Source: Thermodesulfobacteriota bacterium
Lineage (GTDB): Bacteria; Desulfobacterota; Desulfobaccia; Desulfobaccales; 0-14-0-80-60-11
Direction of reading: 5' to 3'
Length of the DNA: 64,000 bases
Assembly (NCBI GenBank): GCA_040757175.1
Contig: JBFLXM010000012.1
Location: forward strand, 15,806-79,805
The position numbers and the translations under genes were made by a program. Shown here one piece after another: positions 8,401 through 25,575 of this stretch. The notes beneath the pieces are model-generated. The model had not been told where the DNA came from and did no database searches. It saw only the letters and a program-made list of their open reading frames with translations. Numbering within the stretch: position 1 is the stretch's first letter; each line of letters starts with the position of its first letter.

Positions 8401-11400
8401 TGGCTAAAGGTCCCACTGCCGCCGAGCCCGACGATCGTATTGGCGTTCACCACCAGGCTGCCGTCGCTCAGGTTGTAATTACCGCTGCCGCCGGCATAAT
8501 ACCCCAGGACCAGGTTGTCGGTGGTGTTGGTGCCGCCGCTCTGGTTCAGAGTGCCGCTGCCCGCGTAACCCACATATTCATTGGCCGCGGTGAGGCTGCC
8601 GCCGCTAAGGTTGTAGGTGCTGCTCTCGCCGGCGTTTTTCCCCAGGTAGAGGTCGGTGACAGCCGCGGCCCCGCCGGTCTGGTTAAAGAGGCCACCCTGG
8701 TTCACATTAACAGTCCCCGCGGCCAGGCTGCCGCCCTGGAGGTTGTAGGTGCCGCTGCTGCCGGACACGTTCGCCAGGGTCAGGACGCCGGTCACCGTAT
8801 GGGTGCCGCCGCTCTGGGTAAAGGTGCCGCTGCCCTCGTTGCCGATGATCTCATCGGCTACCGCCAGGCTGCCGCCGCTCAGGTTATAGGTGCCGCTGCT
8901 GCCCGCGTAAGTGGCCAGGGTCAGGGTCCCCGTGGTGTTGGTGCCGCCGCTCTGGTTGAAGGTGCCGCTGCCGCCGTCGTCGCCGCCGATGAATTCCATG
9001 TCCGCGGCCAGGCTGCCGCGGCTCAGATTATAGGTGCCGTTACCATAGACTCCCAGAAACAGTCCCGCATCACCCGTACTGTTGTGCATGGTGTTGGTGC
9101 CGCCGGTCTGGGTGAAAGTGCCCGTGCCGCAGTTGCCGATGATTTCATACTCGGCGGAGAGGCTGCCGTCATTCAAGGTGTAGTTGCCGCTGGCCGTGTC
9201 ATCGTACCCCAGGATCAGGGAGCCGGGGAGAAATGTGTCGCCGGGCACCGTATGGGTGCCGCCGTTCTGGACAAAGCTGCCGCTGCCGCTGAAGCCGATG
9301 TATGAGTAATAATAGGCTTGGAGGCTGCCGCCGTTCAGGGTATAGGTGCCGCTGGCCCCGGCGTTCTCCCCCAAGCCGATGGCATAAGCCGTGTTGGTGC
9401 CGCCGTTCTGGGTGAACGCGCCGCTGCCGTCGTAGCCGATGGATTGGGACCAGGCTTCGAGGCTGCCGTTGTTCAGGGTATAGGTGCCGCTGGCCCCGGC
9501 GTTCAGCCCCAGGTAGAGTTCACCGCACTGGTGGGAGCCGCCGGTTTGGGTGAAGGCGCCGCGGCCGGAGCCGCCGATCATTTCATAATCGGCCGCGAGG
9601 CTGCCGCCGCTCAGGTTGTAGGTGCCGCTGCTGCCGGCGCCGTGCCCCAGGATCAGATCGCCGGTCACCGTATGCGTGCCGCCGGTCTGGGTAAAGGCGC
9701 CGGTGCCTGAGGAACCCACCCGCTCATAGTCGCCCACTGAGAGGCTGCCGTTGTTCAGGGTATAGACGCCGGTGCTGTTGGCACCGTCCCCCAGGATAAA
9801 ATGACCGTCCACCTCATGGGTGCCGCCGTTTTGGGTAAAAGTGCCGGTGCCATTGACGCCGATGTACTCGTTGTCGGCCCCCAGACTGCCGCCGTGCAGA
9901 GTGTAGCTGCCGCTGGCTCCGGCTTGCATCCCCAGGTAGAGTTCACCGCAGTTGTTGGAGCCGCCGGTTTGCGTGAACGCGCCGCTGCCGGAAGCGCCCA
10001 CATGCTCATTGCCTTGAACCAACAGGCTGCCGCCCTGGAGATGGTAGGTGCCGCTGCCGGTGCCGGCGTAGCCCAGGTTGAGGTCGCCGGTCACGGTATT
10101 GGTGCCGCCGCTCTGCGTAAAAGTGCCGGTGCCGTTGTAGCCGATATATTCCTGGGTGGCCGTCAGCGTCCCGGCCAGGGTCATGGTGCCGTCGTTGGTG
10201 AGGCCGTCGCCGTTGAGGATCACCGTGCGGCCCGCGGCGATATCCAGGGTGGTGGCGGAGTAGTTGGCCAGGCCGTTGCCCGCGGTGAAATCGGCGTTGA
10301 AATTCACCGCGCCGTAGTTCAGCAGGCGGCCGCTGAAAGTGCCGCTATTGTAATTGAAGGTGCCCCGGTTCTCCAGGGACCCGGTCACCGTGCCCCCCTG
10401 CTGGTTGAAGGCGGTGGCGTTCAGGTTGCCGCCGGTCTGGTTGAAGACACCTCCGGCGTTCAGGTCGATGGTCCCCGCGGTCAGGCTGCCGGCGCTCAGG
10501 TTGTAGGTGCCGGTGCCGGCGCCGTCGCTCACCATGATGGAGCCCGCTGTGTGGCTGCCGCCGCTCTGGCTGAACGTGCCGCTGCTGCCGCAGCCGATAT
10601 ATTCGCCGCCCGCCACCGTCAGGCTGCCGCCGCTCAGATTGTAGGTGGCGGTGCCGAAAACCCCCACATAGAGGTCCGAGCCGGCCGTGTGGGTGCCGCC
10701 GCTCTGGTTGAAGGTACTGGTGCCCGAATAACCCAGGCATTCAGCATCGCCCACCGCCAGGCTGCCGGTGCCGCTCAGGTTATAGGTGCTGCTTTGGGCG
10801 GGGTTATCGCTCATAATGAGGTATGAGTATATGGTATTGGTGCCGCCGCTCTGGTTGAAGGTGCTGGTGCCGCCGTCGCCCATGGCGCCGATGTACTCGT
10901 TAGCGGCCGAGAGGCTGCCATTAATAAGATTGTAGGTGCCGCTGGTACCGGCGAAGGAGACTACTTCCAGGTCGCCGCTGATGGTGTTGGTGCCGGCGCT
11001 CTGGGTGAAGACGCCGCTGCCGTAATAGCCAATAGACTCTTTGCCGGCCGCGAGGCTGCCCCCCTCCAAGTTATAGGCGCCGCTGCTGCCGGAGGCAAAC
11101 CCCAGATACAGAACCGTGGACACCGTATGGGTGCCGCCTTTTTGGGTAAAGGCGCCGCTGCCGGAGAAGCCCACGTAGGCAGCGCCTGAAGCGCCCACGG
11201 AGAGGCTGCCGTCGTCCAGGGTATAGGTGCCGCTGCCGCCGGCGTAGCGCCCCAGGATCAGATCGCGTCCCACGGTGTTGGTGCCGCCGTTCTGGGTGAA
11301 GGCCCCGCTGCCGGAGAAGCCCACGAATTCATCTTGCGCGGAAAGGCTGCCGCTGCCGCTCAAATTGTAGGTGCCGCTGCCGCCGGCACTATTCCCCAGG

Positions 11401-12959
11401 GTCAGGCTGCCGGACACCGTGTGGGTGCCGCCGCTTTGGGTGAAGGCGCCGCTGCCGGAGTAGCCCACGTATTCACTGGCCGCGGTGACGCTGCCGTTGC
11501 TCAGGGTGTAGCTGTTGCTGACCCCGGCGTTTCTGGCCAGGTATAGATCGGTGAAAGCCGCGCTGCCGCCGCTCTGGCTGAACGTGGTGAAATCAAGCTG
11601 GCCCCCGGTCTGGTTGAAGAGGCCGTTGGCGTTCAGGTTAACGGTCCCCGCGGTCAGGCTGCCGCCCTGGAGGTTATAGGTGCCGCTGCTGCCGGCGTTG
11701 GCCGCCAGGGTCAGGGCGCCGCTCACCGTATTGCTGCCGCCGCTCTGGGTAAAGGCGCCGGTGCCGTTGTAGCCGATATATTCCTGGGTGGCCGTCAGGT
11801 TTCCGGCTAGGGTCATGGTCCCGTCGTTGGTGAGGCCGTCGCCGTTGAGAGTCACCGTGCGGCCCGAGGCAATGGCCAGGGTGGTGGCGGAGTAGTTGGC
11901 CAGACCGTTGCCCGCGGTGAAGTCGGCGTTGAAATTCACCGTGCCGTAGTTCAGGAGCCGGCCGCTGCAAGTGCCGCTGCTGTAGTTGAAGGTGCCCCGG
12001 TTCTCCAGGGACCCGGTCACCGTGCCCCCCTGCTGGTTGAAGGTGGTGGCGTTGAGGCTGCCGCCGGACTGGTTGAAGACGCCCCCGGCCTTCAGCCCGA
12101 CGGTCCCGGCCGTCAGGCTGCCGCCCTGGAGGTTGTAAGTGCCGCTGCTGCCGGAATTTTGCGCCAGGGTCAGGGCGCCGGTCACCGTATGGGTGCCGCC
12201 GCTCTGGGTAAAGGCGCCGCTGCCGGAGAAGCCCACGTATTCATCCAACGCGGAGAGGCTGCCGGTGTCGCTCAGGTTGTAGCTGCCGCTGCTGCCGGAG
12301 TTGGCCCCCAGGCACAGGATGTTGGTCACCGTGTTGGTGCCCCCGCTCAGGTTGTAGCTGCCGCTGCTGCCGGAGTTGGTCCCCAGGCTCAGGATGTTGG
12401 TCACCGTGTTGGTGCCCCCGCTCTGGCTGAAGGCGCCGCTGCCGGAGTAGCCCACGTATTCATCCAACATAGAGAGGCTGCCGGTGCCGCTCAGGTTGTA
12501 GCTGCCGCTGCCGCCGGAGCTGTGCCCCAGGCTCAGCCCGACGGTCGCTGTATTAGTGCCGCCGCTTTGGGTAAAGGTGCCGCTGCCGTTGTAGCCCACG
12601 TATTCACGGAACGCGGAGAGGCTGCCGGTGCCGCTCAGGTTGTAGCTGCCGCTGCTGCCGGCATTTTCGCCTATCCGGAGATTGTTGGAAACTTGATTTA
12701 TGTACGCGCTCTGATTTAAAACGCCCCCGGCCGCGGTGGTGCCAATATATTCGTTATCATACGTGAGGTCGCCAACAACATCGTAAGGGGAATTACTTTG
12801 CGAGACATCCACGGTCAGGTCATCGGCCGGGCACAGCCCCGGCGCCAGGACCAGCGCCAGCCCCAGGGCCGCGGCCAGCAACCCCCGCGTCCAGCCAGGA
12901 AAGTCGGGAGACGCGATGCCTTCCCGCCCTACGGCTCTTCTTTTTGCTCTGATTTGCAT
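5457..12959 (-). CDS. Giant type Va autotransporter (2500 aa) with Gly/Ser/Thr-rich beta-helix-like repeat passenger
   Basis: N-terminal signal-like segment (GLLAAALGLALVLAPGLCPA), dozens of F(T/N)Q(S/T)GGT(N/H)T..L.LG...GSG.Y.L.GGSL repeats, C-terminal ~300-aa barrel with alternating strands ending GLRWEF (terminal Phe). Confidence 0.92.
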   Translation of the reverse strand: MQIRAKRRAVGREGIASPDFPGWTRGLLAAALGLALVLAPGLCPADDLTVDVSQSNSPYDVVGDLTYDNEYIGTTAAGGVLNQSAYINQVSNNLRIGENAGSSGSYNLSGTGSLSAFREYVGYNGSGTFTQSGGTNTATVGLSLGHSSGGSGSYNLSGTGSLSMLDEYVGYSGSGAFSQSGGTNTVTNILSLGTNSGSSGSYNLSGGTNTVTNILCLGANSGSSGSYNLSDTGSLSALDEYVGFSGSGAFTQSGGTHTVTGALTLAQNSGSSGTYNLQGGSLTAGTVGLKAGGVFNQSGGSLNATTFNQQGGTVTGSLENRGTFNYSSGTCSGRLLNYGTVNFNADFTAGNGLANYSATTLAIASGRTVTLNGDGLTNDGTMTLAGNLTATQEYIGYNGTGAFTQSGGSNTVSGALTLAANAGSSGTYNLQGGSLTAGTVNLNANGLFNQTGGQLDFTTFSQSGGSAAFTDLYLARNAGVSNSYTLSNGSVTAASEYVGYSGSGAFTQSGGTHTVSGSLTLGNSAGGSGTYNLSGSGSLSAQDEFVGFSGSGAFTQNGGTNTVGRDLILGRYAGGSGTYTLDDGSLSVGASGAAYVGFSGSGAFTQKGGTHTVSTVLYLGFASGSSGAYNLEGGSLAAGKESIGYYGSGVFTQSAGTNTISGDLEVVSFAGTSGTYNLINGSLSAANEYIGAMGDGGTSTFNQSGGTNTIYSYLIMSDNPAQSSTYNLSGTGSLAVGDAECLGYSGTSTFNQSGGTHTAGSDLYVGVFGTATYNLSGGSLTVAGGEYIGCGSSGTFSQSGGSHTAGSIMVSDGAGTGTYNLSAGSLTAGTIDLNAGGVFNQTGGNLNATAFNQQGGTVTGSLENRGTFNYNSGTFSGRLLNYGAVNFNADFTAGNGLANYSATTLDIAAGRTVILNGDGLTNDGTMTLAGTLTATQEYIGYNGTGTFTQSGGTNTVTGDLNLGYAGTGSGTYHLQGGSLLVQGNEHVGASGSGAFTQTGGSNNCGELYLGMQAGASGSYTLHGGSLGADNEYIGVNGTGTFTQNGGTHEVDGHFILGDGANSTGVYTLNNGSLSVGDYERVGSSGTGAFTQTGGTHTVTGDLILGHGAGSSGTYNLSGGSLAADYEMIGGSGRGAFTQTGGSHQCGELYLGLNAGASGTYTLNNGSLEAWSQSIGYDGSGAFTQNGGTNTAYAIGLGENAGASGTYTLNGGSLQAYYYSYIGFSGSGSFVQNGGTHTVPGDTFLPGSLILGYDDTASGNYTLNDGSLSAEYEIIGNCGTGTFTQTGGTNTMHNSTGDAGLFLGVYGNGTYNLSRGSLAADMEFIGGDDGGSGTFNQSGGTNTTGTLTLATYAGSSGTYNLSGGSLAVADEIIGNEGSGTFTQSGGTHTVTGVLTLANVSGSSGTYNLQGGSLAAGTVNVNQGGLFNQTGGAAAVTDLYLGKNAGESSTYNLSGGSLTAANEYVGYAGSGTLNQSGGTNTTDNLVLGYYAGGSGNYNLSDGSLVVNANTIVGLGGSGTFSQSGGTHEVATLYVGRGSTGSGAYNLSGGSLSSDAAILGMDGSGAFTQSGGTHTVTNGLYLGFFADGSGVYNLNDGSLSAAFEEIGSVGSGAFTQSGGTHTVAGSLGVGVAGEGAYDLIGGTLTAATEYIGIAALGAFTQSGGVHTVTDSLVLGLVNGSDGAYTLTGGSLGVGGNAVIGDAGDGAFYQSGGTNTVANTLTLGAVCGGNGAYLLEGGSLTAANTCVGQASGGTFMQTGGTHTVANNLSLGLQDSSYGLYQLDAGSLAVGGNAVIGNAGLGVFLQSGGTNTVANNLILGAASGGDGTYFMTGGSLAAANACVGQTGSGAMMQTGGSHTVANNLFLGDQTSGMGSYALIDGVLAVGGNEVIGNLGLGAFIQGGGSHMVAGALTLAAGAGSSGTYELDGGSLSAGLININAGGHFLRSGGEMNYNILNFQGGDYSGYLVNQTLVMGTGTIFGSLTNAGTVSPGQSVGVLTIIGSYAQTAAGVYQAEIASASIYDRITVNGGTASLNGTLAISLLGGYRPLGNQVFSGIITAAGGITGTFSSILNQQIGPTLSWQPRYNANSVDLWVQRNYSNLAGLTKNQRSVGNMLGSVADSATGDLNYVLNAIDSLPTTGAVANAYTQISPEKAGALASLGLTGAGSQMRNLAQWITSGRFGTREVQTAFGLDSLGNYGISGAGLMLAYNGSSLAELITGQKAGAGASPLAFYLLPNLLLGGQGTTVNQTGYSYTGAGFTLGGDYRVRDDLLVGLATGYNHLGASFRGSGGNVANNNWPITAYAAYLPESGYAFGSLGYSLNLFTLDRNIAFEGVDRRAKSSPTGHQFNGYGEAGYDLKWRPLVVTPLVSLAYSQIWVGGFAEDGANSLNLQVGSQSAASLQSGVGAKVSLPLKRNSTLVVPQVYATYQHEFANDSRGLDARLSQGSSTSTWQTDSPHRDFAVLGANCTLGIRKNVRAQLDYNVEVGRGSYTAHSLNAGLRWEF
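10100..12140 (-). repeat. Internal duplication of a ~135-aa passenger block (copies about 10100-10510 and 11730-12140)
   Basis: Both copies encode FNQQGGTVTGSLENRGTFNY.SGT.SGRLLNYG.VNFNADFTAGNGLANYSATTL..A.GRTV.LNGDGLTNDGTMTLAG.LTATQEYIGYNGTG with near-identical DNA. Confidence 0.9.
12285..12425 (-). repeat. 75-bp (25-codon) tandem duplication in the autotransporter passenger
   Basis: GGTNTVTNILSLGTNSGSSGSYNLS followed directly by GGTNTVTNILCLGANSGSSGSYNLS. Confidence 0.85.
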
Positions 12960-13034
12960 GGCCCTTCCTCCCCCGGCAGCAGACGGCCCGGGCTAATACC
13001 AATGCTGTTCACTAAACAGTATGAGATTTTCCCT

Positions 13035-13157
13035 GGTTCCCAAGTTGCACTTGGGAACCCATTTTTCCGGCAAAGCTGCGCTTTGGCACCTTATTCCCGG
13101 TGGTGCCCAAGCGCAGCTTGGGCCAAAATTCCCGTTCCCAAGCACAGCTTGGGAACG
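13035..13157. repeat. Cluster of REP-like palindromes (GTTCCCAAG-N5/6-CTTGGGAAC family)
   Basis: GGTTCCCAAGTTGCACTTGGGAACC 13035-13059, CAAAGCTGCGCTTTG about 13071-13085, GCCCAAGCGCAGCTTGGGC 13105-13123, CGTTCCCAAGCACAGCTTGGGAACG 13133-13157. Confidence 0.8.
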
Positions 13158-13171
13158 AGGGTAAAACGTTT

Positions 13172-13238
13172 TCTCGCAAAGACGCAAAGATCGCCAAGTT
13201 TTTTTATCCTCTCTTTGCGTCCTTGGCGTCTTGGCGAG
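13172..13238. repeat. REP-like imperfect inverted repeat built from CGCAAAGA/CGCCAAG units
   Basis: TCTCGCAAAGACGCAAAGATCGCCAAG ... CTTTGCGTCCTTGGCGTCTTGGCGAGA. Confidence 0.7.
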
Positions 13239-13316
13239 AAACAATAAAGAGATCCTCGAAAAGACACATTACCCCCCATTTCGGCGCGTGAGACACGCCC
13301 GACGATGGACATTTTC

Positions 13317-13488
13317 AGAGCAGTCGCTCATGATCTGTTGGCTCTCTCAAAAGAATGAAAAGGCTGGGTGGGGCGGGCCTCCGTGCAGTGGGGCGGGCGT
13401 CCCCGCCCGCCAACCTCTATGGCGGCCAGAGACGGCCGCCCCACCAACTTGGAACTTGGAACCTGGAACTTGGAACTTTTCGTAGCAG
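13317..13488 (+). mobile_element. Short non-coding repeat element, copy B
   Basis: AGAGCAGTCGCTCAT ... GGCTCTCTCAAAAGAATGAAAA ... GGTGGGGCGGGCCTCCGTGC ... GACGGCCGCCCCACCA ... GGAACTTTTCGTAGCAG. Blocks are shared with 63316-63450. Confidence 0.75.
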
Positions 13489-13573
13489 GCAAAGCTACCT
13501 GAAGGCGGGATGCGCTGCGCTTTCCCGCCCTACACCCTCCTACACTCTTCCCTGCCCGGTGTTCCCCGGCACC

Positions 13574-14071
13574 CTAGCGGCGCGCCGGGGCTGCCTTCTT
13601 TTCCCCTTTGCCCGGCTTACCCTCGGGCGCAGCCGCCGGCGGCGGGCTCACCGCCGGTCCCGGGGCCGGCCCGGCCGCGGCCGGGGCCGCCTTGGCCTCC
13701 CGGATGAGCCGGGCCACCTGGGAATCCGGGGCCACCGGTTCCAGGCGCACGATGTGCCGGGTATTGATGCGCATGAAATCCGGACCGTGCCACTCGCTGC
13801 CCAACCGCATCAGGATGCTCCTGGCCTCTTTTTTCTCGCCGCTTACTAGCCGCTGGACGTAATAAACATCCCTGAGAGTAAGGAAGGCGGAATCGGTTGC
13901 CCCGATCTTGCCGAAAAAGACCTGGCCGTTGTCCAGAAACACGGCCTGATACTCCGTGGGAAAAGAGAGGTCGCCGCCCCCCGGGCAGCCGGCCAAGAGG
14001 GCCGGCAGCAGCAAGGGAAACAGCAAGATAAGGACCCGAAAGGTTCTCAAGCCCTGTTGCGGTGGTGGCAT
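13574..14071 (-). CDS. Putative lipoprotein of unknown function
   Basis: Signal peptide with lipobox LLAGC, compact domain YQAVFLDNGQVFFGK..DVYYV..GPDFMRINTRHIV, Pro/Ala/Lys-rich tail. Confidence 0.75.
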   Translation of the reverse strand: MPPPQQGLRTFRVLILLFPLLLPALLAGCPGGGDLSFPTEYQAVFLDNGQVFFGKIGATDSAFLTLRDVYYVQRLVSGEKKEARSILMRLGSEWHGPDFMRINTRHIVRLEPVAPDSQVARLIREAKAAPAAAGPAPGPAVSPPPAAAPEGKPGKGEKKAAPARR

Positions 14072-14723
14072 AAATCCCCCCTGACTAAAAAAGAGACGTC
14101 CTTAATCCTCAAAAGTTACGGCCGTCAAGCCTCCTCCCCATTCCGGCCTTTCCGAAGGACAAATGAAAACTCAACAGTCCTTCTGGTCAGCCACCATAGC
14201 AAAAAACCATGGGGCTGGCAAACAATTTGCATAACATTATAGGGCAGTTGTCTGTGGGGGATGAAGGTTGTCTGGGAAGACCGCTTTCCTTGAGTTTGCT
14301 TATCGAGAAAATTTCCTTTTTTAATTTTCAGCTTTTTTTGCCTAAGCGGGTTTACCACCCGCCCCAACCATGGGAACATGGTATTATTCCCCGCCCTCAT
14401 CATTGCCGTGCCAGGACCAGTTGCTCTCCTGCGCCTCTTTCTGGAGCGCCGGAGGCGCAACCGGCAGAGGCCCTGGCCATTGACTTTGCTTCCTGATTAT
14501 GGAATATTTCTAAACCAGGGTCTGCCCTGATGCCAAGGTCTTGTCATGATTTGGGGTGCCGCAATAGCCGAGTTGCCTTAAGGAAGGTTCCTCGGCTTTT
14601 TATTGCCATGATGATGAACCGTGGGGATGTCTTTGGAGGCCGTAAGGGAGCCCTGATGTTCTGCAAGATGAAAGTCCCGGCCGGGGATGGGGACTTCGGG
14701 CCGGTGCCTGCGGGTAGCGCCGC

Positions 14724-16607
14724 GTGAGTAAAAGGTTTCTTTGCGGCCTCTTGCTGGTGGTTCTTTTAGGGGCAGGGGCCGAAGCGGCCTTCCGGAACGG
14801 GTGGCTGGGGTTGGCGGAGGACTGGTATTATGACCTGTGGCATCAACTTTCCGGCCGGAGATACGAGCCCCAACAGGTGGTCATCGCGGCCATCGATGAC
14901 CAGACCCGGCTGGAGCACCAGGATGAGCCCCTGGTGTTCTGGAGCCCGCACTTTGCCCAAGCGATTGCGGTCTTGCGGCAGGCCGGGGTCAAGGTCATCG
15001 GCCTGGACGTTCTCTTTTCGGTGAGCGCCGAATCCTGGCTGCAACGGCTGCAATTGCCGGAAAGCGGCCAAAGCCGCACCTACGATTTGCCCTTCCGGGA
15101 GCAACTGGCCTCCGGGGCGGTGATCCTGGCCGGCGACCTGGCCTACGGCGCCGACGGTAAAGAAAAGGCCCTCCTGCCGCTCCCCGATTACTGGGCGGCT
15201 CTGCCGGGAAAGCTGGACGATGTGGGTTTGGTCAAGTTCTACCTTGACCCTGACGGGGTGATCCGCCGCTTTTTGCCTGCCATCCCCACGGCCGACGGGG
15301 GGGCGTGGGTCGCGTTCGGCAAGCTCTTGGCGGACCGCATGGCCGCCCCCGGCTCCGGTCCGGACCAGCCTCCCCTTTCCTTCCTAAATTTCAGCGGCCC
15401 GCCGGGCACCATCCCCCGGATTTCTTTCCGGCGGCTGCTCTTGCCGGCCGCGGCCCAGGATCCCCAGGTGCGGCGCCTCCAGGGCAAGGCGGTCATCATT
15501 GCCTATGAGGCTGCCGGCATTCAGGATCTGCACCAGACCCCTTATTCCCGGGGGTTTTTCAATATCCCGGCCCGCTTGATGAGCGGCGCGGAAGTGCATG
15601 CCAATATCGTGGAAACCATCCTCACCGGGCGCAGCCCCCGGCCGGCGGCCACCCCGTATCGGCTGGCTTACCTGGTTGCCCTCCTGGCCCTGGGCACCCT
15701 GCTGTTTTTCAGACTGGCCCCCGGGCCGGGATTGGCGGTCCTGGCGCTGTTGGCCTTGAGTGCGGCAGTCTGCGCCTTTATACTCTTCCGCAGCAATCTG
15801 CTGCTGCCAGCCGCGGTCCTCCAGGCGGGCCTGGGGCTGAGCTACCTGGGTGTTCTGGGACTGCGGCTCACCGGGGAAGAACGGGAACGCGCCCGTCTGC
15901 GGCAGATCTTTGGGCGCTATGCCTCCGAGGAAGTGGTGGAGAAGCTGCTGGCCTCGGGCCGGGAGCCTGACCTGGGAGGAGAGGCCCTGACGGTGACTGT
16001 GCTCTTTGCGGATATCCGCAATTTCACTGCCATTTCCGAGTCTCTCAACCCCCATGAAGTGGTGGAGATGCTCAACACCTATTTCAGCCGGGTGTGCGAG
16101 CCCATCCTGGCGCAAGGAGGGACGGTGGACAAGTTTATCGGCGATGCCATCATGGCGGTGTTCGGTTCGCTGGCTCCCTACCCGGATCATGCCCGCCGGG
16201 CCCTTCGGGCTGCCCTGGCGGTGGCGGCGAGGGCCAGGGAGTTCGACGCCTGGATGGCCAGGCGGTTTGTGAGCCGCGGCTTGCCGGAATTCCGTATCGG
16301 CATCGGGGTGCATACGGGTGAGGCGGTGGTGGGCAATATCGGCTCCTCCCAACGGTTTGAATTCACGGCCGTGGGCGACACGGTGAACACGGCCTCGCGT
16401 TTGGAAGGTTTGACGAAAGAGCTGGGATGGACCATCGTCGCCAGCTTTGGAACCATTGAGGCGGCTGGTCCGGGGGTGGTGACGGGCGGCCTCCGGAAAG
16501 TCCGGGTCAAGGGCCGCCAAGAAACGGTGGAGGTCCTGGAGGTCAAGGGTCTTAAGGAAGATAACCCCAGTGACATTTCTGACGGAGGGAGCGGTAATGA
16601 AGATTAA
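14724..16607 (+). CDS. CHASE2-domain class III adenylate cyclase
   Basis: N-terminal TM, CHASE2-like region (VVIAAIDD..IGLDVLF..D.DGVIRR..GAEVHANIVETIL), three TM helices, cyclase motifs LFADIRNFT, VDKFIGDAIM, FTAVGDTVNTASRLE. Confidence 0.93.
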   Translation: MSKRFLCGLLLVVLLGAGAEAAFRNGWLGLAEDWYYDLWHQLSGRRYEPQQVVIAAIDDQTRLEHQDEPLVFWSPHFAQAIAVLRQAGVKVIGLDVLFSVSAESWLQRLQLPESGQSRTYDLPFREQLASGAVILAGDLAYGADGKEKALLPLPDYWAALPGKLDDVGLVKFYLDPDGVIRRFLPAIPTADGGAWVAFGKLLADRMAAPGSGPDQPPLSFLNFSGPPGTIPRISFRRLLLPAAAQDPQVRRLQGKAVIIAYEAAGIQDLHQTPYSRGFFNIPARLMSGAEVHANIVETILTGRSPRPAATPYRLAYLVALLALGTLLFFRLAPGPGLAVLALLALSAAVCAFILFRSNLLLPAAVLQAGLGLSYLGVLGLRLTGEERERARLRQIFGRYASEEVVEKLLASGREPDLGGEALTVTVLFADIRNFTAISESLNPHEVVEMLNTYFSRVCEPILAQGGTVDKFIGDAIMAVFGSLAPYPDHARRALRAALAVAARAREFDAWMARRFVSRGLPEFRIGIGVHTGEAVVGNIGSSQRFEFTAVGDTVNTASRLEGLTKELGWTIVASFGTIEAAGPGVVTGGLRKVRVKGRQETVEVLEVKGLKEDNPSDISDGGSGNED

Positions 16608-17334
16608 GGGAATAATGAAGTGCACCGGTATTCTTTGCCTGGCGGGGTTCGCCTCCTTGCTGGCGGCCCCGGTGGCGGCCCAGAAGTCCTTGCCGGACGT
16701 GGGGCTGATCACCAAACTTACCGGGGCAGCCACCTACTGGAATCAAGGGGATAACCAGGAACCGGCCAAGGTGCGGGCCTTTATGAAGGTCCGCCAGGGC
16801 GACCACCTGCAGTTGGCGGCGGCTGCTTCGCTGACGATCCTCTACTTTGCCAGCGGCCGGCAGGAGACCTGGAGGGAACCGGTAATTTTCCTGGCCGGCG
16901 AGGGAGAGAGCAAGGTCTTGGACGGCAAGCAGCCGGCCCCCCAGCCGGAGGTGAAAATCTTACCCACCAAAGCCAGCAAGCAGATGAGGGGGACGCCGCT
17001 GCCCCTAGCCCCTGCCGCCATGGGTAAATCAGGGGTCATTCAGACCATGGGGCCCAAATGCGAGCCCGCGGCCAAGGCTACGGCGCCGCTCTCCAGTGCG
17101 GCTCAAAGCAAAATCAAGGAAGCCGAGAAGGTCTATCTGGATTTAAAGAAAGGCGCCGCCGCCGACGATGTCACGCCGGAATTGTATTTCTTCAGCGTCC
17201 TGGCCGAGTACCGGCAGTTTCCGGAAATGACGAAGATGGTGGACGCCATGTTGGCCAAAAGGCCGGGAGACGCAGCCCTGAAAGACCTGAAGGCCTGTGT
17301 CCGGGACCAAGCGCTGAAAGGGGCGCAGCCCTAA
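16597..17334 (+). CDS. Exported hypothetical protein, N-terminal half FecR-like
   Basis: Signal peptide (CTGILCLAGFASLLAAPVAA). VGLITKLTG..MKVRQGDHLQL..ASLTIL resembles the FecR N-terminal pattern. Start overlaps the cyclase stop. Confidence 0.65.
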   Translation: MKIKGIMKCTGILCLAGFASLLAAPVAAQKSLPDVGLITKLTGAATYWNQGDNQEPAKVRAFMKVRQGDHLQLAAAASLTILYFASGRQETWREPVIFLAGEGESKVLDGKQPAPQPEVKILPTKASKQMRGTPLPLAPAAMGKSGVIQTMGPKCEPAAKATAPLSSAAQSKIKEAEKVYLDLKKGAAADDVTPELYFFSVLAEYRQFPEMTKMVDAMLAKRPGDAALKDLKACVRDQALKGAQP

Positions 17335-17379
17335 TGACGCAAGGGGTTGATCCTCTTAGATAAAGCCTGGGAGGCTGTT

Positions 17380-20010
17380 ATGCGTAAACTCACCGCTGCC
17401 TGTCTGTGGGTCCTGATCGCCGCCTTGACGGCCGCCCCCGGGTGGGCTGAGAAAAAAGGCGCGCGTCCTCCTGCCTCCTCTCTGTCTGAGGAGGACTCGA
17501 GTTCGGCCCAAACCGGGGATGTGCCGGAAGCCGGGGAATTAATGAAACAGGGCCGGGCCCTGGAGGCCGCGGGTCATAACTATAAGGCCCTGTCCTTATA
17601 CGAGCGGGCCCTGCAGCTCCGGGAGAAGACCCTGGGACCGGACCACCCCCTCACCGCGGCCAGCATGGCCCGTTTGGCGAGGCTTTATTCCCTCCTGAGT
17701 TTCTTTGACAAGGGCCTGCCCCTGGCCCAGCAATCCTTAAGGATCAGGGAGAAGAACCTGGGGCCCGAAAATCCCCAAACCGCCCAAAGCCTGATGATCC
17801 TGGGGTTCCTCTACGGGCAGATGGGGGCCCAGGACAAGGGCCTGCAAATGACTCAGCAAGCCCTGCGGATCAGTGAAAAGGCCTTAGGCCCGGAACACCC
17901 GCGCACCGCGGCCGCCCTCCACAACCTGGCAGTCCTTCATGCGCAGATGGGGGCCTATGACCAGGCCCTCCCCTTGGCCCAGCGCGCCGCCCGGATTAGA
18001 GAACAGGCGTTGGGACTCCAAGACCTGCGCACCGCGGGCAGTCTCACCAACCTGGGATATCTCTATCTGCTCAAAAAAGATTACAGCCAGGCGGAATCTT
18101 GTTTCCGCCGGGCCTTGCCGGTGAAGGGCGACCACGGCCTGGTGGAACTTTATCTGGCCCAAGGACAGTATGAATCCGCCCTAAACGCCTTAACCCGCCA
18201 CGCTCCCAAGGCGTGGTACCGGCCTCAATACCAGGCCTTGTACTATACTCAGAAGGGCTTGGCGCTGCAGGGTTTGGGGCAATGGCAAGAGGCCTATCCC
18301 GCCTTTCTGGAAGCCATTAAAAACATCGAAGGGCTGCGGGGCCGCACCTCCGGGGAGCGTACCGGTTTCTTCGAGTCCGGACTCCTGGGCGGTTATTCCC
18401 GGGCCTATCGGGGCCTGGTGGAGGTCCTGGCGCAGATGGCCCAAAAGGGGGAGCCCCTTCCCCAAGCCCTGCAAACCTACGGACCGGATGCCGGGGCTGC
18501 GGCCTTTTATTTTGCCGAGTCCATCAAGGCCCGCTCCCTGCTGGAGGCAATGGCGGCCGGGGCCGCCCGGGAGAGCTTCCAATTGCCCCCGGATCTGGCG
18601 GCCCGGGAAAAGAGCCTCCAGGAGCGCCTGGCGGCCCTGGAAGCCCAGAGGCCGGAACGCTTACAGGAACGGGGCAAAGGCTGGGACCGGCAAGAACAAC
18701 CTGCGGAGCAATTCCATCTGGAAATTGAAACATTGCAGAAAAAACAACAGGAGTTAGTGGCGGAATTGCGGCGCCGGCAGCCCCGCTATGCCGCCCTGCG
18801 TTATCCCCAACCTTATAAGGCCCAGGAACTGCCGCTAAAACCGGGAGAAGTGCTCGTGGAGTATGCCCTGGGTGATAAGCAGAGCTATCTTTTTAGGGTG
18901 GAGCCCGGCGGCAAGACCCAGGTCTTCCGTATCCCCCTGGGGCAAGAGGCCTTGGAAAAACGCCTGGGCGCCATACTGTCCCCATTCCGGCAGGACGTGT
19001 TGCGGCGGGAAGATTTGTCCCGGTTTTCTGTCAGCGAGGCGGCCAAACTGTATGGAGAATTGCTGAAGCCGGCCCTGGCCGGGGTGGCGCCGAAAACCCA
19101 CCTGATCATCGTGCCGGATGGGGTGCTGGGGGCCTTCCCCTTTGAGGCCCTGGCAGTGGAGGCGGGGCCGGGTTGGGATAAGAGCGTCCTGGTGGGGGAC
19201 CGCTGGGCGGTTTCCTACTCCCAGTCGGCTGCCATCCTGGTCCTGAACCGCCATCTCGGGGCCACTCACGCCTCCAAAGCGCTGTTTGCCCTGGGGGACC
19301 CCATCTTTGACCAAGCCAGCAGCCGCTATCTGGCCTTTAAGTCCGGGAAGGAGAAGGCGGGGGAACTGAAATCCACCGGGCCGGAGAAAGCCCTCACCAT
19401 GTCGGCCAGCGGCGTCCGGGGGGGCCGCCTCGTATTTCCGCCCCTGCCCGAGACCCGGAAGACGGTGGAGGATCTGGCCGGCCTGTTCGGGGAGCCGGTG
19501 CGGCCTCCCGGCATCCTGCTGGACGTACAGGCCACCGAGACCCGGGTGCGCCACACCCCCTTGGCTCAGTATCGCTATCTGTTTTTCGGCACCCATGGGT
19601 TTATGGCGGACAACCTGGCCGGGGTGCGGGAGCCGACCCTGGTGCTGACCCAGGTGGAGAATAAGCCGCCCGACAACGGTTTTCTCACCTTTAGCAAGGT
19701 CATGCACCTCAAGCTGGACGCCGATCTGGTCACCCTGGCCGCCTGTATGACCGGGGTGGGCCAGGTGATGCAGGGGGAGGGGGTGCTCAACTTCGCACGG
19801 GCCTTCCAACAGGCCGGGTCCCGGAGCGTTATGGTGTCCCTGTGGAACATCCCGGTGGATGAATCTTTGAAGTTTTATGCGGCGTTTTATAAAGCCTTAA
19901 AGGAGGGAAAGCCCAAGATTGAGGCGTTAAAGGCCGCCCGCCAGGTAGTGCGCTCCAAAGAACCCCATCCCTATTTCTGGTCCGGCCTCATCCTCCACGG
20001 AGAAGGATGA
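17380..20010 (+). CDS. Exported TPR + CHAT (caspase HetF-associated) protease
   Basis: Signal peptide MRKLTAACLWVLIAALTAAPGWA, kinesin-light-chain-type TPRs (LGPDHPLTAASM), IVPDGVLGAFPFEAL, catalytic His (FFGTHG) and Cys (TLAAC), HPYFWSG. Confidence 0.92.
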   Translation: MRKLTAACLWVLIAALTAAPGWAEKKGARPPASSLSEEDSSSAQTGDVPEAGELMKQGRALEAAGHNYKALSLYERALQLREKTLGPDHPLTAASMARLARLYSLLSFFDKGLPLAQQSLRIREKNLGPENPQTAQSLMILGFLYGQMGAQDKGLQMTQQALRISEKALGPEHPRTAAALHNLAVLHAQMGAYDQALPLAQRAARIREQALGLQDLRTAGSLTNLGYLYLLKKDYSQAESCFRRALPVKGDHGLVELYLAQGQYESALNALTRHAPKAWYRPQYQALYYTQKGLALQGLGQWQEAYPAFLEAIKNIEGLRGRTSGERTGFFESGLLGGYSRAYRGLVEVLAQMAQKGEPLPQALQTYGPDAGAAAFYFAESIKARSLLEAMAAGAARESFQLPPDLAAREKSLQERLAALEAQRPERLQERGKGWDRQEQPAEQFHLEIETLQKKQQELVAELRRRQPRYAALRYPQPYKAQELPLKPGEVLVEYALGDKQSYLFRVEPGGKTQVFRIPLGQEALEKRLGAILSPFRQDVLRREDLSRFSVSEAAKLYGELLKPALAGVAPKTHLIIVPDGVLGAFPFEALAVEAGPGWDKSVLVGDRWAVSYSQSAAILVLNRHLGATHASKALFALGDPIFDQASSRYLAFKSGKEKAGELKSTGPEKALTMSASGVRGGRLVFPPLPETRKTVEDLAGLFGEPVRPPGILLDVQATETRVRHTPLAQYRYLFFGTHGFMADNLAGVREPTLVLTQVENKPPDNGFLTFSKVMHLKLDADLVTLAACMTGVGQVMQGEGVLNFARAFQQAGSRSVMVSLWNIPVDESLKFYAAFYKALKEGKPKIEALKAARQVVRSKEPHPYFWSGLILHGEG

Positions 20011-20097: not shown

Positions 20098-20925
20098 ATG
20101 GAGATCTGCCCGGCGCTGGTCTGTCCCGCCAGATGGGATAAATTGATGGTCTGCACCGATGGTTCCCCCTCGGGGCAGAACGCCGTGGCCGTTACCCTGG
20201 AATTGGCCCAGGCTTGCGGCAGCCTGGTCCATGTCGTCCAGGTGCTGGAAGTCGGTTCGGAATATCAGGCGGCCGCAGAAGTGCAGAAAAATATGGAGGC
20301 CATTAAGGACGCAGCCGCTAAGCTAGGGGTAGGTATGCAGCCGGTGGTGCTCCAGGGACCGGTGACGCATGCCGCCATCCTGTCGGCAGCCGCGAAGATT
20401 TCCCCGGACTTGGTGATCATGGGCCGGCGTGGAAAAACCGCCTTGGACCGCATTTTAATGGGAAGTGTCACCGCCCAGGTTATTGGCCACAGCCCCGGGA
20501 ACGTTATGGTCGTGCCCCGGGGGGCGGCGGTGTGTTTCCAGCGCCTGCTGGTGGCCTTGGATGGATCTCCTTCCAGCGAGAGGGCCTGGAAACTCGGCCT
20601 GGCTATGGCCAAACAGGCCCGGAGCCAATTGCTCGGGGTGGCGGTGGCCCCAAAGAAAGGTGATATCCTCGAAGCCCAGGCCATCATTCAGAAGATGCTC
20701 ACCGCCGCCAAGCAGAGCGGCATTTCTTTAAAATATGTAAAGGGGATTTCTCCCAGGGGAGTCGTTCCTGTTATTGGCATCGTTCAACAGGCCATTAACC
20801 ATGAGGTTGACTTGATTATTATGGGCAGCCATGGCCGCACCGGTTTGAAGAAACTCCTCATGGGGAGCACCACGGAGAAGGTCATCGGTAATGCCCCTTG
20901 CCCGGTTTTAGTAGTAAAAATCTGA
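20098..20925 (+). CDS. Tandem-domain universal stress protein
   Basis: Two USP units: LMVCTDGS..DLVIMGRRG..LMGSVT and LLVALDGS..DLIIMGSHGRTGLKKLLMGSTTEKV. Confidence 0.93.
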   Translation: MEICPALVCPARWDKLMVCTDGSPSGQNAVAVTLELAQACGSLVHVVQVLEVGSEYQAAAEVQKNMEAIKDAAAKLGVGMQPVVLQGPVTHAAILSAAAKISPDLVIMGRRGKTALDRILMGSVTAQVIGHSPGNVMVVPRGAAVCFQRLLVALDGSPSSERAWKLGLAMAKQARSQLLGVAVAPKKGDILEAQAIIQKMLTAAKQSGISLKYVKGISPRGVVPVIGIVQQAINHEVDLIIMGSHGRTGLKKLLMGSTTEKVIGNAPCPVLVVKI

Positions 20926-21159
20926 ACTCCCACTGCCTCCAGTGAGCCCCGCCACGTTTTTGATCCAGGCTGTAATTGGCAAATCCCTGGGTCTTGAAAA
21001 AACCATCGAACCTGGAAGTAACCAAAAACATTTTATTGGGAAAAAATTTATCCTGGTAAACGCTTCTTCCCAGGCAGCAGGCCCGGGATAAAGGGCGGTA
21101 CCTGCCGCTTTGCAGACCATTTCCTTAAGGGCAGGGTTATGGCAATTACTCCAGACTTT

Positions 21160-21261
21160 ATACCATGTTCGCATTGTAGGGGCGGGTTTTAAACCCGCCC
21201 CTACAAGTGATATCAATATGTTAGCATGTTAGTTTGTTTCATTTCAAAACGAACTTGGTAT
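21160..21261. mobile_element. ~100-bp MITE-like element with terminal inverted repeats and an internal GTAG-type REP
   Basis: TIRs ATACCATGTTCG (21160-21171) and CGAACTTGGTAT (21250-21261), 11/12 complementary. Internal palindrome GTAGGGGCGGGTTT-T-AAACCCGCCCCTAC at 21176-21204. Confidence 0.6.
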
Positions 21262-21287
21262 TAGTCGTTCCCCCTTGCCAGAAGATG

Positions 21288-21713
21288 TTAATGATTTTCC
21301 TTGAGATTCTGGATTTCTCCCTCTGCGGCCGCTAATTTCGCGGTCAGGATCGCCACGTCGGACATCAGGTTCTGCACCATTTCAAAGGTGGACCGCAACA
21401 ACTGACAAGCCTGGTTTTGCAGCATTAACAAGGTTTTTACTTCCCGTTCCAGTTCGCCCATGATGGACTCTTTGGGGATCTGCTCCTTGCGGTTCAAGAT
21501 GGCGGTGATTTCCTCGCTGCTGCAGCCTTGCTGGCAAAGTTCACCGATCAGGGTGACAGCCTCCACCGCTGCCGGGGGGTATTTAATAATATCGCCGAAA
21601 TTCCTGGGGGCCAGAAATTCACCAAACTTCTTGACTATCCGCCGCGCCTCAATATCGCTGAAATTGCTCTTTTGCACCACTTCGGTGATTGTCAGCCAAT
21701 TATTGTTGCCCAT
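21288..21713 (-). CDS. Hypothetical protein with N-terminal MerR-like HTH and C-terminal coiled coil
   Basis: WLTITEVVQKSNFSDIEARRIVKKFGEF..KYP pattern followed by heptad-rich helices. Confidence 0.6.
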   Translation of the reverse strand: MGNNNWLTITEVVQKSNFSDIEARRIVKKFGEFLAPRNFGDIIKYPPAAVEAVTLIGELCQQGCSSEEITAILNRKEQIPKESIMGELEREVKTLLMLQNQACQLLRSTFEMVQNLMSDVAILTAKLAAAEGEIQNLKENH

Positions 21714-22004
21714 ATCCCTAACCTTTCCCAGCGGCGGAGAAATCCGCCCGATTTTTCAACCCCGAAATAGCCTGGGGCATATTGGTGTCCTCAGCGCTGA
21801 CTTGATTTTCAAGCCTTCCCGGTTCGGGATGACGAGTAATTATCCTGCGCCAAGTAAGGTCAACTTGCGCCACTTACCCTGAGCTTAACGCGTTCAGTAC
21901 CGGTTCTGGGTCACCACTCTTTTCCCGGTTAAGGGGAGGCTTTCCCCCGGCCTGGCCGCAGCCTCTGCCGGGGGAAAATCATCGTTCTGCAGCTCTCTCC
22001 AGGA

Positions 22005-22517
22005 TTAATGCAGTTCTTCCAAGCCGGCCAGTTGCTCCCCGGTCAAGATGCAGTCAATATCCAGAAGGATCTTGACTCCCCCCGCGATCTTGGCCATGCC
22101 TTTGATAAAGCCGGTATGCCTGCCATCCCCGAAATCCGGGGCCCCTTCAATCTCTCCCCCCTTGATGTTGGCCACCTCAGAGACGCCATCCACCACCAGG
22201 CCCATCGTCAATAACCTGGAACCATTTTCGATCTCCACCACGATAATGCAGGTGCGCTCCGTGTAATCCGTGATTTCCAGGCCGAATTTCATTCTGAGGT
22301 CCGTAACCGGGATCACTTTGCCCCGGAGATTAATGACCCCCTTGATAAACGCAGGTGTCTGCGGCACCGCGGTAATCGGCATCATGCCGATGATCTCTCT
22401 GATTTTGAGAATACCGATGCCATATTCCTCCTGCCCCAGGGCAAAGGTGAGATATTTGCCGGCTTGGCCAACCGACTCCTGGGTTTCCTCCAGGTTAATG
22501 ATCTTATGTGCTTCCAT
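22005..22517 (-). CDS. cheW: Chemotaxis coupling protein CheW
   Basis: YLTFALGQEEYGI, ITAVPQTPAFIKGVINLRGKVIPV, MGLVVDGVSEV. Shine-Dalgarno GAGGAG before ATG 22517. Confidence 0.95.
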   Translation of the reverse strand: MEAHKIINLEETQESVGQAGKYLTFALGQEEYGIGILKIREIIGMMPITAVPQTPAFIKGVINLRGKVIPVTDLRMKFGLEITDYTERTCIIVVEIENGSRLLTMGLVVDGVSEVANIKGGEIEGAPDFGDGRHTGFIKGMAKIAGGVKILLDIDCILTGEQLAGLEELH

Positions 22518-22634
22518 CGCCTTTATCTCCTCGTGAACGATAGGGTCCAACCTCTGATAATCTTGGAGAATTGGGGAAATTGGCCGCTTGGCTCAGCCAA
22601 TCTCCCCTTTACCTGGGAAGGCGATTAACCAGGG

Positions 22635-24275
22635 TTAAAAATCCTTAAAATTGCCTTCATCCAAGGGAATGAGCTGTTCCGGGGAGATCTTTTTGCCGCC
22701 CGCCCCTCTGGCTGCCCCGCCGCCGGCCCCCAACAACTTTACGCCCGGCTGCGGGATCTTAACTTTAGAGCCTTTGCCGGCACGGCTGAACACCTTGCGG
22801 GCCAGGGAACCATTGCCCCCATATACGTGCCCGGATTGGTTATTACCACCTATCACAGTGCTTAAATCCTCCACGTAGCCCTTCATCTGCTCTGCCTGGG
22901 CATTCAACTCCTCCGAGGCGCTGGCGCTTTCCTCGGCATTGGCGGCCACCTGCTGGGTCACCTGGTTCATCTCATTGATGGCCTTGTTGATTTGGTCCAC
23001 ACCCTGGGACTGTTCCCCGGAAGCCGCGGAAATCTCCCCCACCAGTTCCTTCATCTTGGTGGAGCTGGAGGCTACCTGGGAAAAGGCCTCCGCGGTCCTG
23101 CCCACCAGTTCCGAACCTTCCTTTACCTTGGTCACCGTGCCTTCGATGAGATTGGCGGTATTCTTGGCCGCCTCGGCCGCTCGCATGGCCAGGTTGCGCA
23201 CCTCATCCGCCACCACCGCGAAACCGGCCCCCGCCTCCCCGGCCCGGGCCGCCTCCACCGCCGCGTTCAGGGCCAAAAGGTTGGTCTGGAAGGCGATCTC
23301 GTCAATGGTCTTGATGATCTTGGCGGTCTCTTCGCTGGCCGCGGATACCTCCTTCATGGACTGGGTCAAGGCGGTCATGGACTCGTTGGCCTGGGTTACC
23401 ACCCGGCTGGATTCGCCCATCAGACTGTTGGCTTCGTTGGCGTTGCTGGCGTTGGTCTTGGTCATGGAGGCCATTTCTTCCATGGACGCGGTGGTCTCCT
23501 CCAAAGACGCGGCCTGCTCCGAGGCTCCCTGGGCCAGGGATTGGCTGGCGGAAGACACCTGCACCGCGGCCGAGGAGACCTGTTCCGCGCCCTCATTTAA
23601 GCTGGCGATAATGCGGTTAATGGGCCGGGTGATGGACAGGCTCAAAATGAGTCCCAGGGCCAGGGCCACTACCGCGCCCAAGATCATGATGGAGACGGCC
23701 AAGGTCAGGACCCGGCTGGACTGCGCCTCTGTACCCTTTTTTACTTCCCTGGCATGCTGTTCCGCCTTGGGGCCGATTTCCTCCAGGAGTTTCTGGACGG
23801 AGTTCAGCTCCTTGATGACATTCCCTTGATAAAAAGTAACGGCTTCAGCCCGGTGCTCCTTGCCTTTCTTCAGGAGCTGCTCCAGTCCCTTGGCCGATTC
23901 ATGGAGCCGCCGGTGGGGTTCATCCACCTGTTGCAGCAAAGATTTGATTTCCGGAATCTCCTCTTCCGCCTTTTTTCTTTCAGCGCCGTAATACCATTTA
24001 CCGAAGGCGCATTTGGTGTGGTCCTTTTCTACGGCCAAGTCCGTCTGGTTTTCATTGCGTTGGAACTCCCCTACCTTCCGGGCCCAATTCAGGTGATCGA
24101 TCTCCCGGCCCAGGATGTTTTTCGCCACCCCATCAATGAAGCTCATCTTTTCACTGGCTGCTAGGGTGTTGTTGATGCCTTTCCAGCCCATGAAGCCGAC
24201 AACCAAAGTAATAAGGGCGACAATCACAAAACCACCGATCAGCTTGACGCTGAGCCGCAAATTCTTGAAAAACAT
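22635..24275 (-). CDS. Methyl-accepting chemotaxis protein with a CZB zinc-binding domain between TM1 and TM2
   Basis: TM1, [23 protein letters not shown] (CZB ligands), TM2, signalling hairpin [34 protein letters not shown]. Confidence 0.93.
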
Positions 24276-24366
24276 AGTGCATCTCCTGTATGATTTATTG
24301 TGTAAATTAACGTGACTCTCGACCATTTACAGTATCGGTAAATTTACTTTCACCTTTGGACCGGGT

Positions 24367-25533: not shown

Positions 25534-25575
25534 CTTCTTGGTCCCTTTGGTGGAATGGGTGGTCAACTCCCCCAT

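Follow-up and report, generated by a model that had tools for sequence, protein, structure and literature searches.

The window, by which we mean the whole 64,000-nucleotide stretch of contig JBFLXM010000012.1 (positions 15,806 to 79,805) from a Thermodesulfobacteriota bacterium that was analysed, contains three plus-strand open reading frames (ORFs) at positions 14724-20010. These encode a CHASE2 receptor cyclase, a middle protein of an unnamed family that is predicted to be exported and that we refer to as MID, and a TPR-CHAT protease that is also predicted to be exported. The initial annotation had described three tightly linked genes on one strand, the first two overlapping, and this was borne out by the ORF coordinates (14724-16607, 16570/16597-17334 and 17347/17380-20010, with alternative starts for the second and third genes). 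The cyclase stop codon (TAA, 16605-16607) overlaps the best MID start, ATG 16597, by 11 nt, and GGAGGGAG precedes that start. The likeliest start of the CHAT gene is ATG 17380, which is 45 nt past the MID stop codon and has the Shine-Dalgarno sequence GGGAGG eight bases upstream. The spacing of the genes suggests that all three are co-transcribed as one operon. The genes, with the domains of the first, are as follows (aa, amino acids):

14724..16607, plus strand: CHASE2 receptor class III adenylate cyclase, 627 aa, GTG start (from Pfam, hydropathy and an AlphaFold2 model)
14796..15653, plus strand: CHASE2 ectodomain of the cyclase, aa ~25-310 (Pfam match)
15990..16421, plus strand: cyclase catalytic domain, aa 423-566 (Pfam and residue inspection)
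16597..17334, plus strand: MID, exported partner of an unnamed family, 245 aa (predicted signal peptide aa 1-28, beta domain, linker, TPR-like tail)
17380..20010, plus strand: predicted exported TPR-CHAT cysteine protease, 876 aa (signal peptide aa 1-23, TPR array, helical middle region, C-terminal CHAT domain)

Searches of the first protein against Pfam matched CHASE2 (PF05226) over aa 21-323 with an E-value of 5.7e-34 and 118.3 bits, against a curated cut-off of 26.3, and Guanylate_cyc (PF00211) over aa 423-566 with an E-value of 1.7e-22; a six-frame search of the genome agreed with the CHASE2 assignment. Hydropathy analysis identified a hydrophobic helix at aa 4-24, before the CHASE2 domain, and a hydrophobic block at aa 311-378, after it. 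The AlphaFold2 model of aa 1-400, which was built on 55 orthologues and paralogues, had a predicted local distance difference test score (pLDDT) of 88.5 and contained helices at aa 3-24, 310-330, 333-355 and 364-397. The topology predicted from these analyses is one transmembrane helix, a periplasmic CHASE2 domain, three further transmembrane helices (~311-397) and a cytoplasmic cyclase domain, with CHASE2 placed outward and the cyclase domain in the cytoplasm because the basic N-terminus is expected to be inside. In the alignment of the 55 sequences the ectodomain has 11 invariant columns, most of them Asp. A Foldseek search of the ectodomain model against the PDB found no analogue, the best match having an E-value of 0.6 and a probability below 0.1. 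We also considered whether the ectodomain might be an inactive caspase-like fold that pairs with the CHAT domain, and found this idea unsupported, as Foldseek returned no PDB analogue despite the high pLDDT of the model.

All six of the class III catalytic residues are intact in the cyclase domain. They comprise the metal-binding D430 (codon GAT 16011) and D474 (GAT 16143), the substrate-binding K470 (AAG 16131) and T548 (ACG 16365), and the transition-state residues N555 (AAC 16386) and R559 (CGT 16398). The combination of Lys and Thr is the adenylate cyclase pattern of class IIIb enzymes. The ATP-specifying Lys/Thr pair reported in the initial annotation thus corresponds to K470 and T548, and the expected product of this cyclase would be cyclic AMP (cAMP). 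Five proteins that bind cyclic nucleotide monophosphates (cNMPs) are encoded in the genome and are possible readers of cAMP. The genome encodes four CHASE2 cyclases in total, and MID and CHAT genes accompany the one at window positions 14724-16607 alone; the other three have no MID, FecR or CHAT neighbors. Directly before another of the CHASE2 cyclases (contig C83), and overlapping it, is a gene for a 219-aa Gly-zipper lipoprotein (L012:5506-6165), which may be a different kind of exported CHASE2 partner. The ORF L010:7550-8332, encountered among the neighbors of these other cyclases, looks spurious.

The features of the middle protein that are discussed below are:

16696..16959, plus strand: beta domain of MID, aa 34-121, with the invariant motifs FMKVRxGD and GRQETWxGP
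17026..17052, plus strand: K-S-G-V-I-Q-T-M-G, aa 144-152, a conserved motif in the predicted disordered linker
17095..17322, plus strand: TPR-like four-helix domain of MID, aa 167-242 (helices 167-186, 193-204, 208-221 and 226-242 in the AlphaFold2 model)

The N-terminus of MID consists of MKIKGIMK, a hydrophobic core and a predicted cleavage site between VAA and QKS, with no lipobox, as judged by hydropathy and inspection. The AlphaFold2 model of MID had a pLDDT of 79, falling below 50 at aa 138-152. Two alignments were used for this protein, one of the window's own MID clade (A1) and one of the broad MID family (A2), and the beta domain motifs listed above were drawn from both. A total of 145 close homologues of MID were found, every one of which is annotated as "hypothetical". 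A profile search of 1.84 billion representatives placed 615 clusters (at 50% identity) in the family at E<=1e-3, and 449 clusters passed the stricter limit of E<=1e-10. MID itself matched nothing in Pfam or NCBIfam, even at E<=10. Among 61 of its diverse relatives, TPR_14 was matched by 21; weak PPR matches were also obtained. A Foldseek search of the MID model returned nothing significant; the best match was 5ix9 at an E-value of 0.011 and a Fis1-type TPR was found at ~0.3. Some members of the family bear a C-terminal DUF4384, and three of the 61 A2 members matched the Pfam family DUF7354 (best E-value 6.7e-06).

The middle protein had originally been called FecR-like, a description that our analyses supported weakly at best. 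None of the 61 relatives matched FecR (PF04773) at E<=1, and a six-frame search of the genome with this profile found three true FecR genes on other contigs, the MID gene not being among them. No FecR or PupR entry was present among the 50 Foldseek matches listed for the MID model. A modest profile-profile signal was obtained with hhalign, in which MID aligned to a FecR alignment with a probability of 72% for the full length and 82% for the N-terminal domain, over 55-70 columns that span the first half of the FecR domain only; the reversed-template control gave 3-5%. The FecR alignment consisted of 31 translated segments; they came from 30 FecR loci found in relatives, one of which contributed both of its strands, so that one row is spurious. 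The aligned stretch corresponds to the pattern G-x-V...GD-x-(l/i)...a-x-(l/i)-x-(f/y). From these sequence comparisons, we consider MID to represent a distinct, unnamed family that may, across half a domain, be very distantly related to FecR in its fold.

The best-conserved stretch of MID outside the beta domain is the short linker motif. In the window's clade (A1) it reads (K/R)-S-G-V-I-Q-T-M-G, with S145, G146, I148, Q149, T150 and M151 each at least 90% conserved. In the wider family (A2) the motif is G-(R/K)-(S/A)-G-G-x-x-V-R-G, with Gly146 conserved in 95% of the sequences and Arg present at position 151 in 84%. A scan of the 80 loci that are described below showed that position 151 is Arg in 52/52 betaproteobacterial loci and Met in 22 of 29 Desulfobaccales-type sequences, including that of the window. 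The motif resembles a cleavage or docking site because it is a short conserved element in a flexible linker of a protein that is tied to a protease. We therefore regard it as a candidate site of recognition, docking or cleavage, in which Met151 (Arg in the betaproteobacterial clade) would be the putative P1 residue. Metacaspases and orthocaspases usually have Arg at P1, and Craspase-type CHAT enzymes are reported to cut after Met or Leu.

The third protein contains, after its signal peptide:

17491..18333, plus strand: TPR array of the protease, aa ~38-318, of the kinesin-light-chain type
19039..20001, plus strand: CHAT caspase-fold domain (Pfam PF12770, E-value 1.6e-51)

Its N-terminus has MRK, a hydrophobic core and a predicted cleavage site between GWA and EKK, again without a lipobox by hydropathy and inspection. 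The signal peptides that had been proposed for the second and third genes were therefore recovered here as predicted N-termini of the canonical n-h-c form with AxA-type cleavage sites. Pfam TPR_12 matched four stretches of the TPR array (E-value 9.4e-40), and the kinesin light chain was matched in the PDB at 4e-28. The His and Cys dyad that had been noted in the CHAT domain was confirmed as His739 (in GTHG; CAT 19594-19596) and Cys789 (in LAAC; TGT 19744-19746), in the numbering of the 876-aa protein, and was present in all 27 orthologues whose sequence extends over these positions. Of 36 CHAT orthologues, 32 begin with a signal-peptide-like segment, the remainder being fragmented frames. Because the dyad and the N-terminal signal are so widely retained, a CHAT protein that is predicted to be both exported and catalytically competent appears to be a conserved feature of the module. 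The CHAT gene in the window is the only one in the genome.

To determine the extent to which the three genes occur together, 80 loci were studied, with one genome per species. These comprised 28 loci from Thermodesulfobacteriota (Desulfobaccales, Syntrophales and Desulfobacca) and 52 from Betaproteobacteria and unclassified proteobacteria (Burkholderiales, Propionivibrio, Thiobacillus, Sulfuritalea and Rhodocyclales), and their open frames were searched with the CHASE2, cyclase, TPR and CHAT segments from the window. A CHASE2 cyclase gene was directly upstream of the MID gene, on the same strand, in 71 of the 74 loci in which 2 kb or more of sequence was available there. All three genes were present together in 40 of the 45 loci that had room to either side. 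The order of the genes is cyclase, MID, CHAT in the Thermodesulfobacteriota versus CHAT, cyclase, MID in the Betaproteobacteria. Because the order differs between the phyla, the association has survived rearrangement and is not mere inherited synteny. In addition, three homologous loci (47-74% identity) had the same trio and unrelated flanking genes. The linkage of the three genes is far beyond chance, and the conservation of the neighborhood that the initial annotation had suggested as a check was found in two phyla despite the changed order.

The module belongs to the accessory genes in the lineage of the window. The host genome has one copy of it, and it was present in eight of nine genomes of the genus (host included) and in seven of the 19 genera sampled, and it was absent from the sampled genomes of the sister family. 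Genes for another type of peptidase were observed at two of the homologous loci. In L004 the divergent neighbor of the module (L004:3740-5692) encodes a streptopain-like Peptidase_C10 whose prodomain is Inhibitor_I69. In L027 a Peptidase_C10 gene (L027:3324-4985) adjoins the MID gene, and neither a CHASE2 cyclase gene nor a CHAT gene was detected at that locus.

A second line of evidence came from natural fusions of MID to caspase-fold proteases. Complete MID sequences are fused to Peptidase_C14 in two proteins, P0141 (897 aa) and P0148 (708 aa). P0141 is present on two independent contigs (L123 and L124), and on one of these its gene directly follows a CHASE2 cyclase gene and precedes a gene for a 1363-aa MORN-TPR-CHAT protein. 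In a third case (L037:5965-9315), a single frame of 1117 aa joins MID to the mature TPR-CHAT protein. The hydrophobic core of the protease signal peptide is deleted in this frame, which points to a genuine fusion and away from a simple frameshift. Fusions of MID to proteases represent Rosetta-stone evidence and therefore support a physical coupling of the two proteins. The variant module in L123 (L123:2363-11284) consists of the CHASE2 cyclase, then P0141, which has a DUF4384-like tail, and then the MORN-TPR-CHAT protein. ParB and relaxase-like genes were observed upstream of the variant module in L123/L124, which may be located on a mobile element or plasmid.

Since the three genes stay together in two phyla, their products probably represent a single cell-envelope sensing device, and we judge it likely that the cyclase, MID and the CHAT protease work together on the periplasmic side of the membrane. 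The initial annotation had interpreted the locus as a periplasmic protease module with a FecR-like middle component. The first part of that interpretation, one extracytoplasmic module, is consistent with the linkage, the fusions, the intact dyad, the intact catalytic residues of the cyclase and the predicted export, and the FecR-like identity comes down to, at best, a remote similarity over half a domain. Our best explanation in full, on which we are evenly divided, is that the three genes form one operon for a device that passes information from the envelope to cAMP. In such a device an envelope cue would bind either the TPR array of the protease or MID, and the CHAT protease would then be able to cut MID at the linker motif, after Met151 or after the Arg found there in the betaproteobacterial clade. 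Alternatively, the cue would release the protease from MID. The protease and MID would thus be a periplasmic pair, either enzyme and substrate or enzyme and adaptor. The CHASE2 domain would sense the changed state of MID and switch the synthesis of cAMP, which would be read by one of the five cNMP-binding proteins. In this reading, signalling would run from MID through CHASE2 to cAMP.

The more specific steps of this proposal are held less firmly. That MID is cut at its linker and that this cut switches the cyclase is a tentative suggestion. Somewhat doubtful is the general form of the idea, in which the input to CHASE2 would not be a small molecule and the domain would instead sense whether a dedicated periplasmic protein has been cut, with the caspase-fold protease (TPR-CHAT in the window, Peptidase_C14 in the fusions) cutting MID at its conserved linker motif and thereby switching the cyclase. 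Several observations weigh against the proposal. The candidate P1 residue is not constant among MID proteins, being Met, Arg, Lys, Leu or Pro. There was no detectable CHAT gene in five of the 45 roomy loci (L027, L031, L034, L083 and L084), which indicates that the cyclase and MID pair can exist alone. The export of MID and of the protease is based on heuristic prediction. The L037 fusion is known from a single metagenome-assembled genome and could, although this is less likely, be an artefact of assembly. Lastly, deletion of the gene for MtxA, an analogous exported partner of a CHASE2 cyclase, had no phenotype in Magnetospirillum (PMC4439547).

If the proposal is correct, the module would represent a periplasmic caspase-like proteolytic switch that feeds a second-messenger receptor. 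To our knowledge, CHASE2, a common extracellular sensor domain of bacteria, has had no ligand assigned to it in two decades and has no known structure, and the bacterial CHAT and other caspase-fold proteases that we are aware of have been studied almost entirely as cytoplasmic effectors of defence or death. The module therefore provides a concrete system of three proteins in which to study the signal perceived by CHASE2 and the function of caspase-like proteases in the periplasm.

Other explanations for the trio were weighed against the same evidence. In the main rival explanation MID would not be a substrate and would serve as a scaffold or inhibitor, holding the protease at the receptor, in which case the protease would cut the CHASE2 ectodomain or a protein of the envelope or surface, and the receptor would report this as cAMP. 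The fusions of MID to proteases would suit a tether as well as a substrate, and both the TPR-like domain of MID and the TPR array of the protease are protein-binding modules. A gene for a 2500-aa autotransporter, which is a possible substrate of the protease and as such a lead only, is divergent from the module and 1.76 kb away from it; the two are also adjacent in one other genus (G028), and in L092 the MID gene is followed by an autotransporter ORF. However, this adjacency is not conserved, as it was seen in G000 and G028 only, the autotransporter and the module not being on the same contig in six genomes (G001, G002, G004, G005, G024 and G027) and the adjacency being absent at L001 and L004 as well. 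The adaptor explanation also leaves the conserved linker motif of MID without an explanation, and we consider it rather unlikely. It is improbable, in our view, that the genes are merely co-expressed, with the protease carrying out periplasmic turnover or adhesin processing and the cyclase and MID sensing independently. Such loose coupling would account for the five of 45 loci in which the cyclase and MID pair lacks CHAT, and the three other CHASE2 cyclases of the genome function without either partner. Against it are the maintenance of the trio across two phyla despite rearrangement, the existence of MID-protease fusions, and the location at this site of the single CHAT gene of the genome.

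A role in anti-phage defence or programmed death, by way of a Pycsar-like cyclase and a caspase-fold effector, appeared to us very improbable. CHAT and caspase proteases do act in Craspase and other defence systems, and the cyclase domain matched the PADLOC PycC models at 4.1e-29. These matches, however, span the generic class III catalytic domain only, and neither MID nor CHAT had a PADLOC match. There was no cNMP-binding effector gene adjacent to the module and no cas genes were present among the neighbors examined. The cyclase is, in addition, a membrane receptor with the adenylate Lys/Thr pair, and a nucleotide made in the cytoplasm could not reach the protease or MID because both have signal peptides. 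Membership of Pycsar was consequently rejected, given the generic PycC match, the lack of an adjacent effector and the form of the receptor. Still harder to credit is cell-surface signalling of the FecR type, in which MID would relay the signal of a TonB-dependent transducer as in the sensing of iron-citrate. The remote profile similarity of MID to the first half of the FecR domain is in line with such a role, as is the fact that CHASE2 receptors are accompanied by FecR-domain proteins in Burkholderia (PMC5192318) and in S. meliloti (PMC5498481). MID, however, has no Pfam FecR match and is predicted to be a soluble, exported protein that has a cleavable signal peptide only, with neither an anti-sigma domain nor a membrane anchor, and no gene for an extracytoplasmic function (ECF) sigma factor or a TonB-dependent receptor was found among the neighbors examined.

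CHASE2 receptors with dedicated exported partners have been described previously, and what distinguishes the envelope-to-cAMP module proposed here is the predicted exported CHAT protease and the MID family. A full-text search of the literature found no paper that combined CHASE2 with "CHAT domain". The S. meliloti cyclases CyaD1, CyaD2 and CyaK are the only CHASE2 cyclases that have been studied, and they respond to a protein signal (plant uL2) via the envelope accessory protein NsrA (PMC13001267, PMC7529298). The Clr regulon of this species includes SMc02177, which has a FecR domain, the periplasmic SMc02178 and the TPR protein SMb20495, which are not required for perception (PMC5498481). The similarities to the module are the combination of CHASE2 with a class III cyclase and the exported FecR-domain and TPR proteins that are genetically linked to the S. 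meliloti pathway. Unlike the module, that system has no described CHAT or caspase protease, and NsrA is an outer-membrane barrel rather than a member of the MID family. The biological settings also differ, the S. meliloti system being part of a plant symbiosis and the module being found in free-living anaerobes and betaproteobacteria.

A comparable arrangement is present in the mtx cluster of magnetotactic bacteria, in which the exported protein MtxA (PDB 4Z29) is encoded just before a CHASE2 adenylate cyclase (PMC4439547). In MtxA, which has 313 aa, the beta region is N-terminal and the TPR-like domain C-terminal, and the protein also has an Ig-like (Big) domain and a flexible linker that is sensitive to trypsin (PMC4439547). 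MID is likewise an exported partner with a beta-linker-TPR build that is encoded beside a CHASE2 adenylate cyclase, an analogy of build and context for which no homology was found. It differs from MtxA in its length of 245 aa, in having no Ig-like domain and in the opposite order of the genes. A link in sequence or structure between the two was rejected, as 4Z29 was not found when the A1 and A2 profiles (E<=10) and the longer relatives P0267 and P0166 were searched against PDB sequences, and was absent among the 50 Foldseek matches listed.

The 'BiofilmReg' operon of Burkholderia contaminans encodes a response regulator, a periplasmic LysM-FecR protein and a CHASE2 histidine kinase (PMC5192318). 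As in the module, the CHASE2 receptor is encoded beside a partner with a signal peptide, and the BiofilmReg pairing is conserved across Betaproteobacteria (PMC5192318). The differences are its histidine kinase output, a partner that is a true Pfam FecR protein with LysM, and the lack of a protease. Caspase-fold proteases have been found fused to CHASE2, as in the metacaspase-CHASE2 protein of Trichodesmium and the EACC2-caspase-CHASE2 architecture (PMC3501461, PMC2853523, PMC8195603). The module shares with these fusions the coupling of a caspase-fold protease to a CHASE2 sensor. In the fusions, however, the protease is joined to the receptor as its predicted cytoplasmic output, whereas in the module it is a separate protein, predicted to be exported to the side on which sensing takes place, and a cyclase provides the output. 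The TPR-CHAT architecture of the third protein is shared with Craspase, the complex of the type III-E Cas7-11 and the TPR-CHAT protein Csx29, which cuts a dedicated protein substrate at a defined site. Craspase is cytoplasmic, RNA-guided and linked to CRISPR, whereas the third protein has a predicted signal peptide and no PADLOC match. No cas domains were identified among the neighbors examined, in which CRISPR arrays were not explicitly searched for.

The remaining features of the locus are upstream and downstream of the three genes. The sole upstream signal found, and a weak one, was a promoter-like site identified in a consensus scan:

14480..14508, plus strand: promoter-like sequence (TTGACT-17-AATATT, TG present), ~215 nt before the start codon of the cyclase (weak evidence)

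The Rfam scan identified no regulatory RNA, its sole match being a tRNA at 335-407. The 1.76 kb between the autotransporter and cyclase genes (12960-14723) has a lower GC content of 55-61%. The short ORFs in this interval (13355-13849 on the plus strand, 13574-14071 and 14125-14460 on the minus strand) had no family matches, and the stretch had no Rfam match. The autotransporter gene itself (5457-12959, minus strand) encodes a protein with a signal-peptide-like start, in which ~20% of the residues are Gly and the repeat 'GSGxYNLSGGSL...GTFTQSGGTNT' occurs dozens of times. Pfam gave no match to the full-length protein, but its C-terminal 349 aa matched the Autotransporter beta-domain (2.3e-51); by sequence it is a giant type Va autotransporter. 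Downstream of the module, the region at 20098-25575 begins with a gene for a tandem universal stress protein (Usp) of 275 aa. This is followed on the minus strand by genes for CheW, a methyl-accepting chemotaxis protein (MCP) with a CZB zinc-binding domain, and a response-regulator/HATPase protein. The GC content falls to 39% around 24000-25000.

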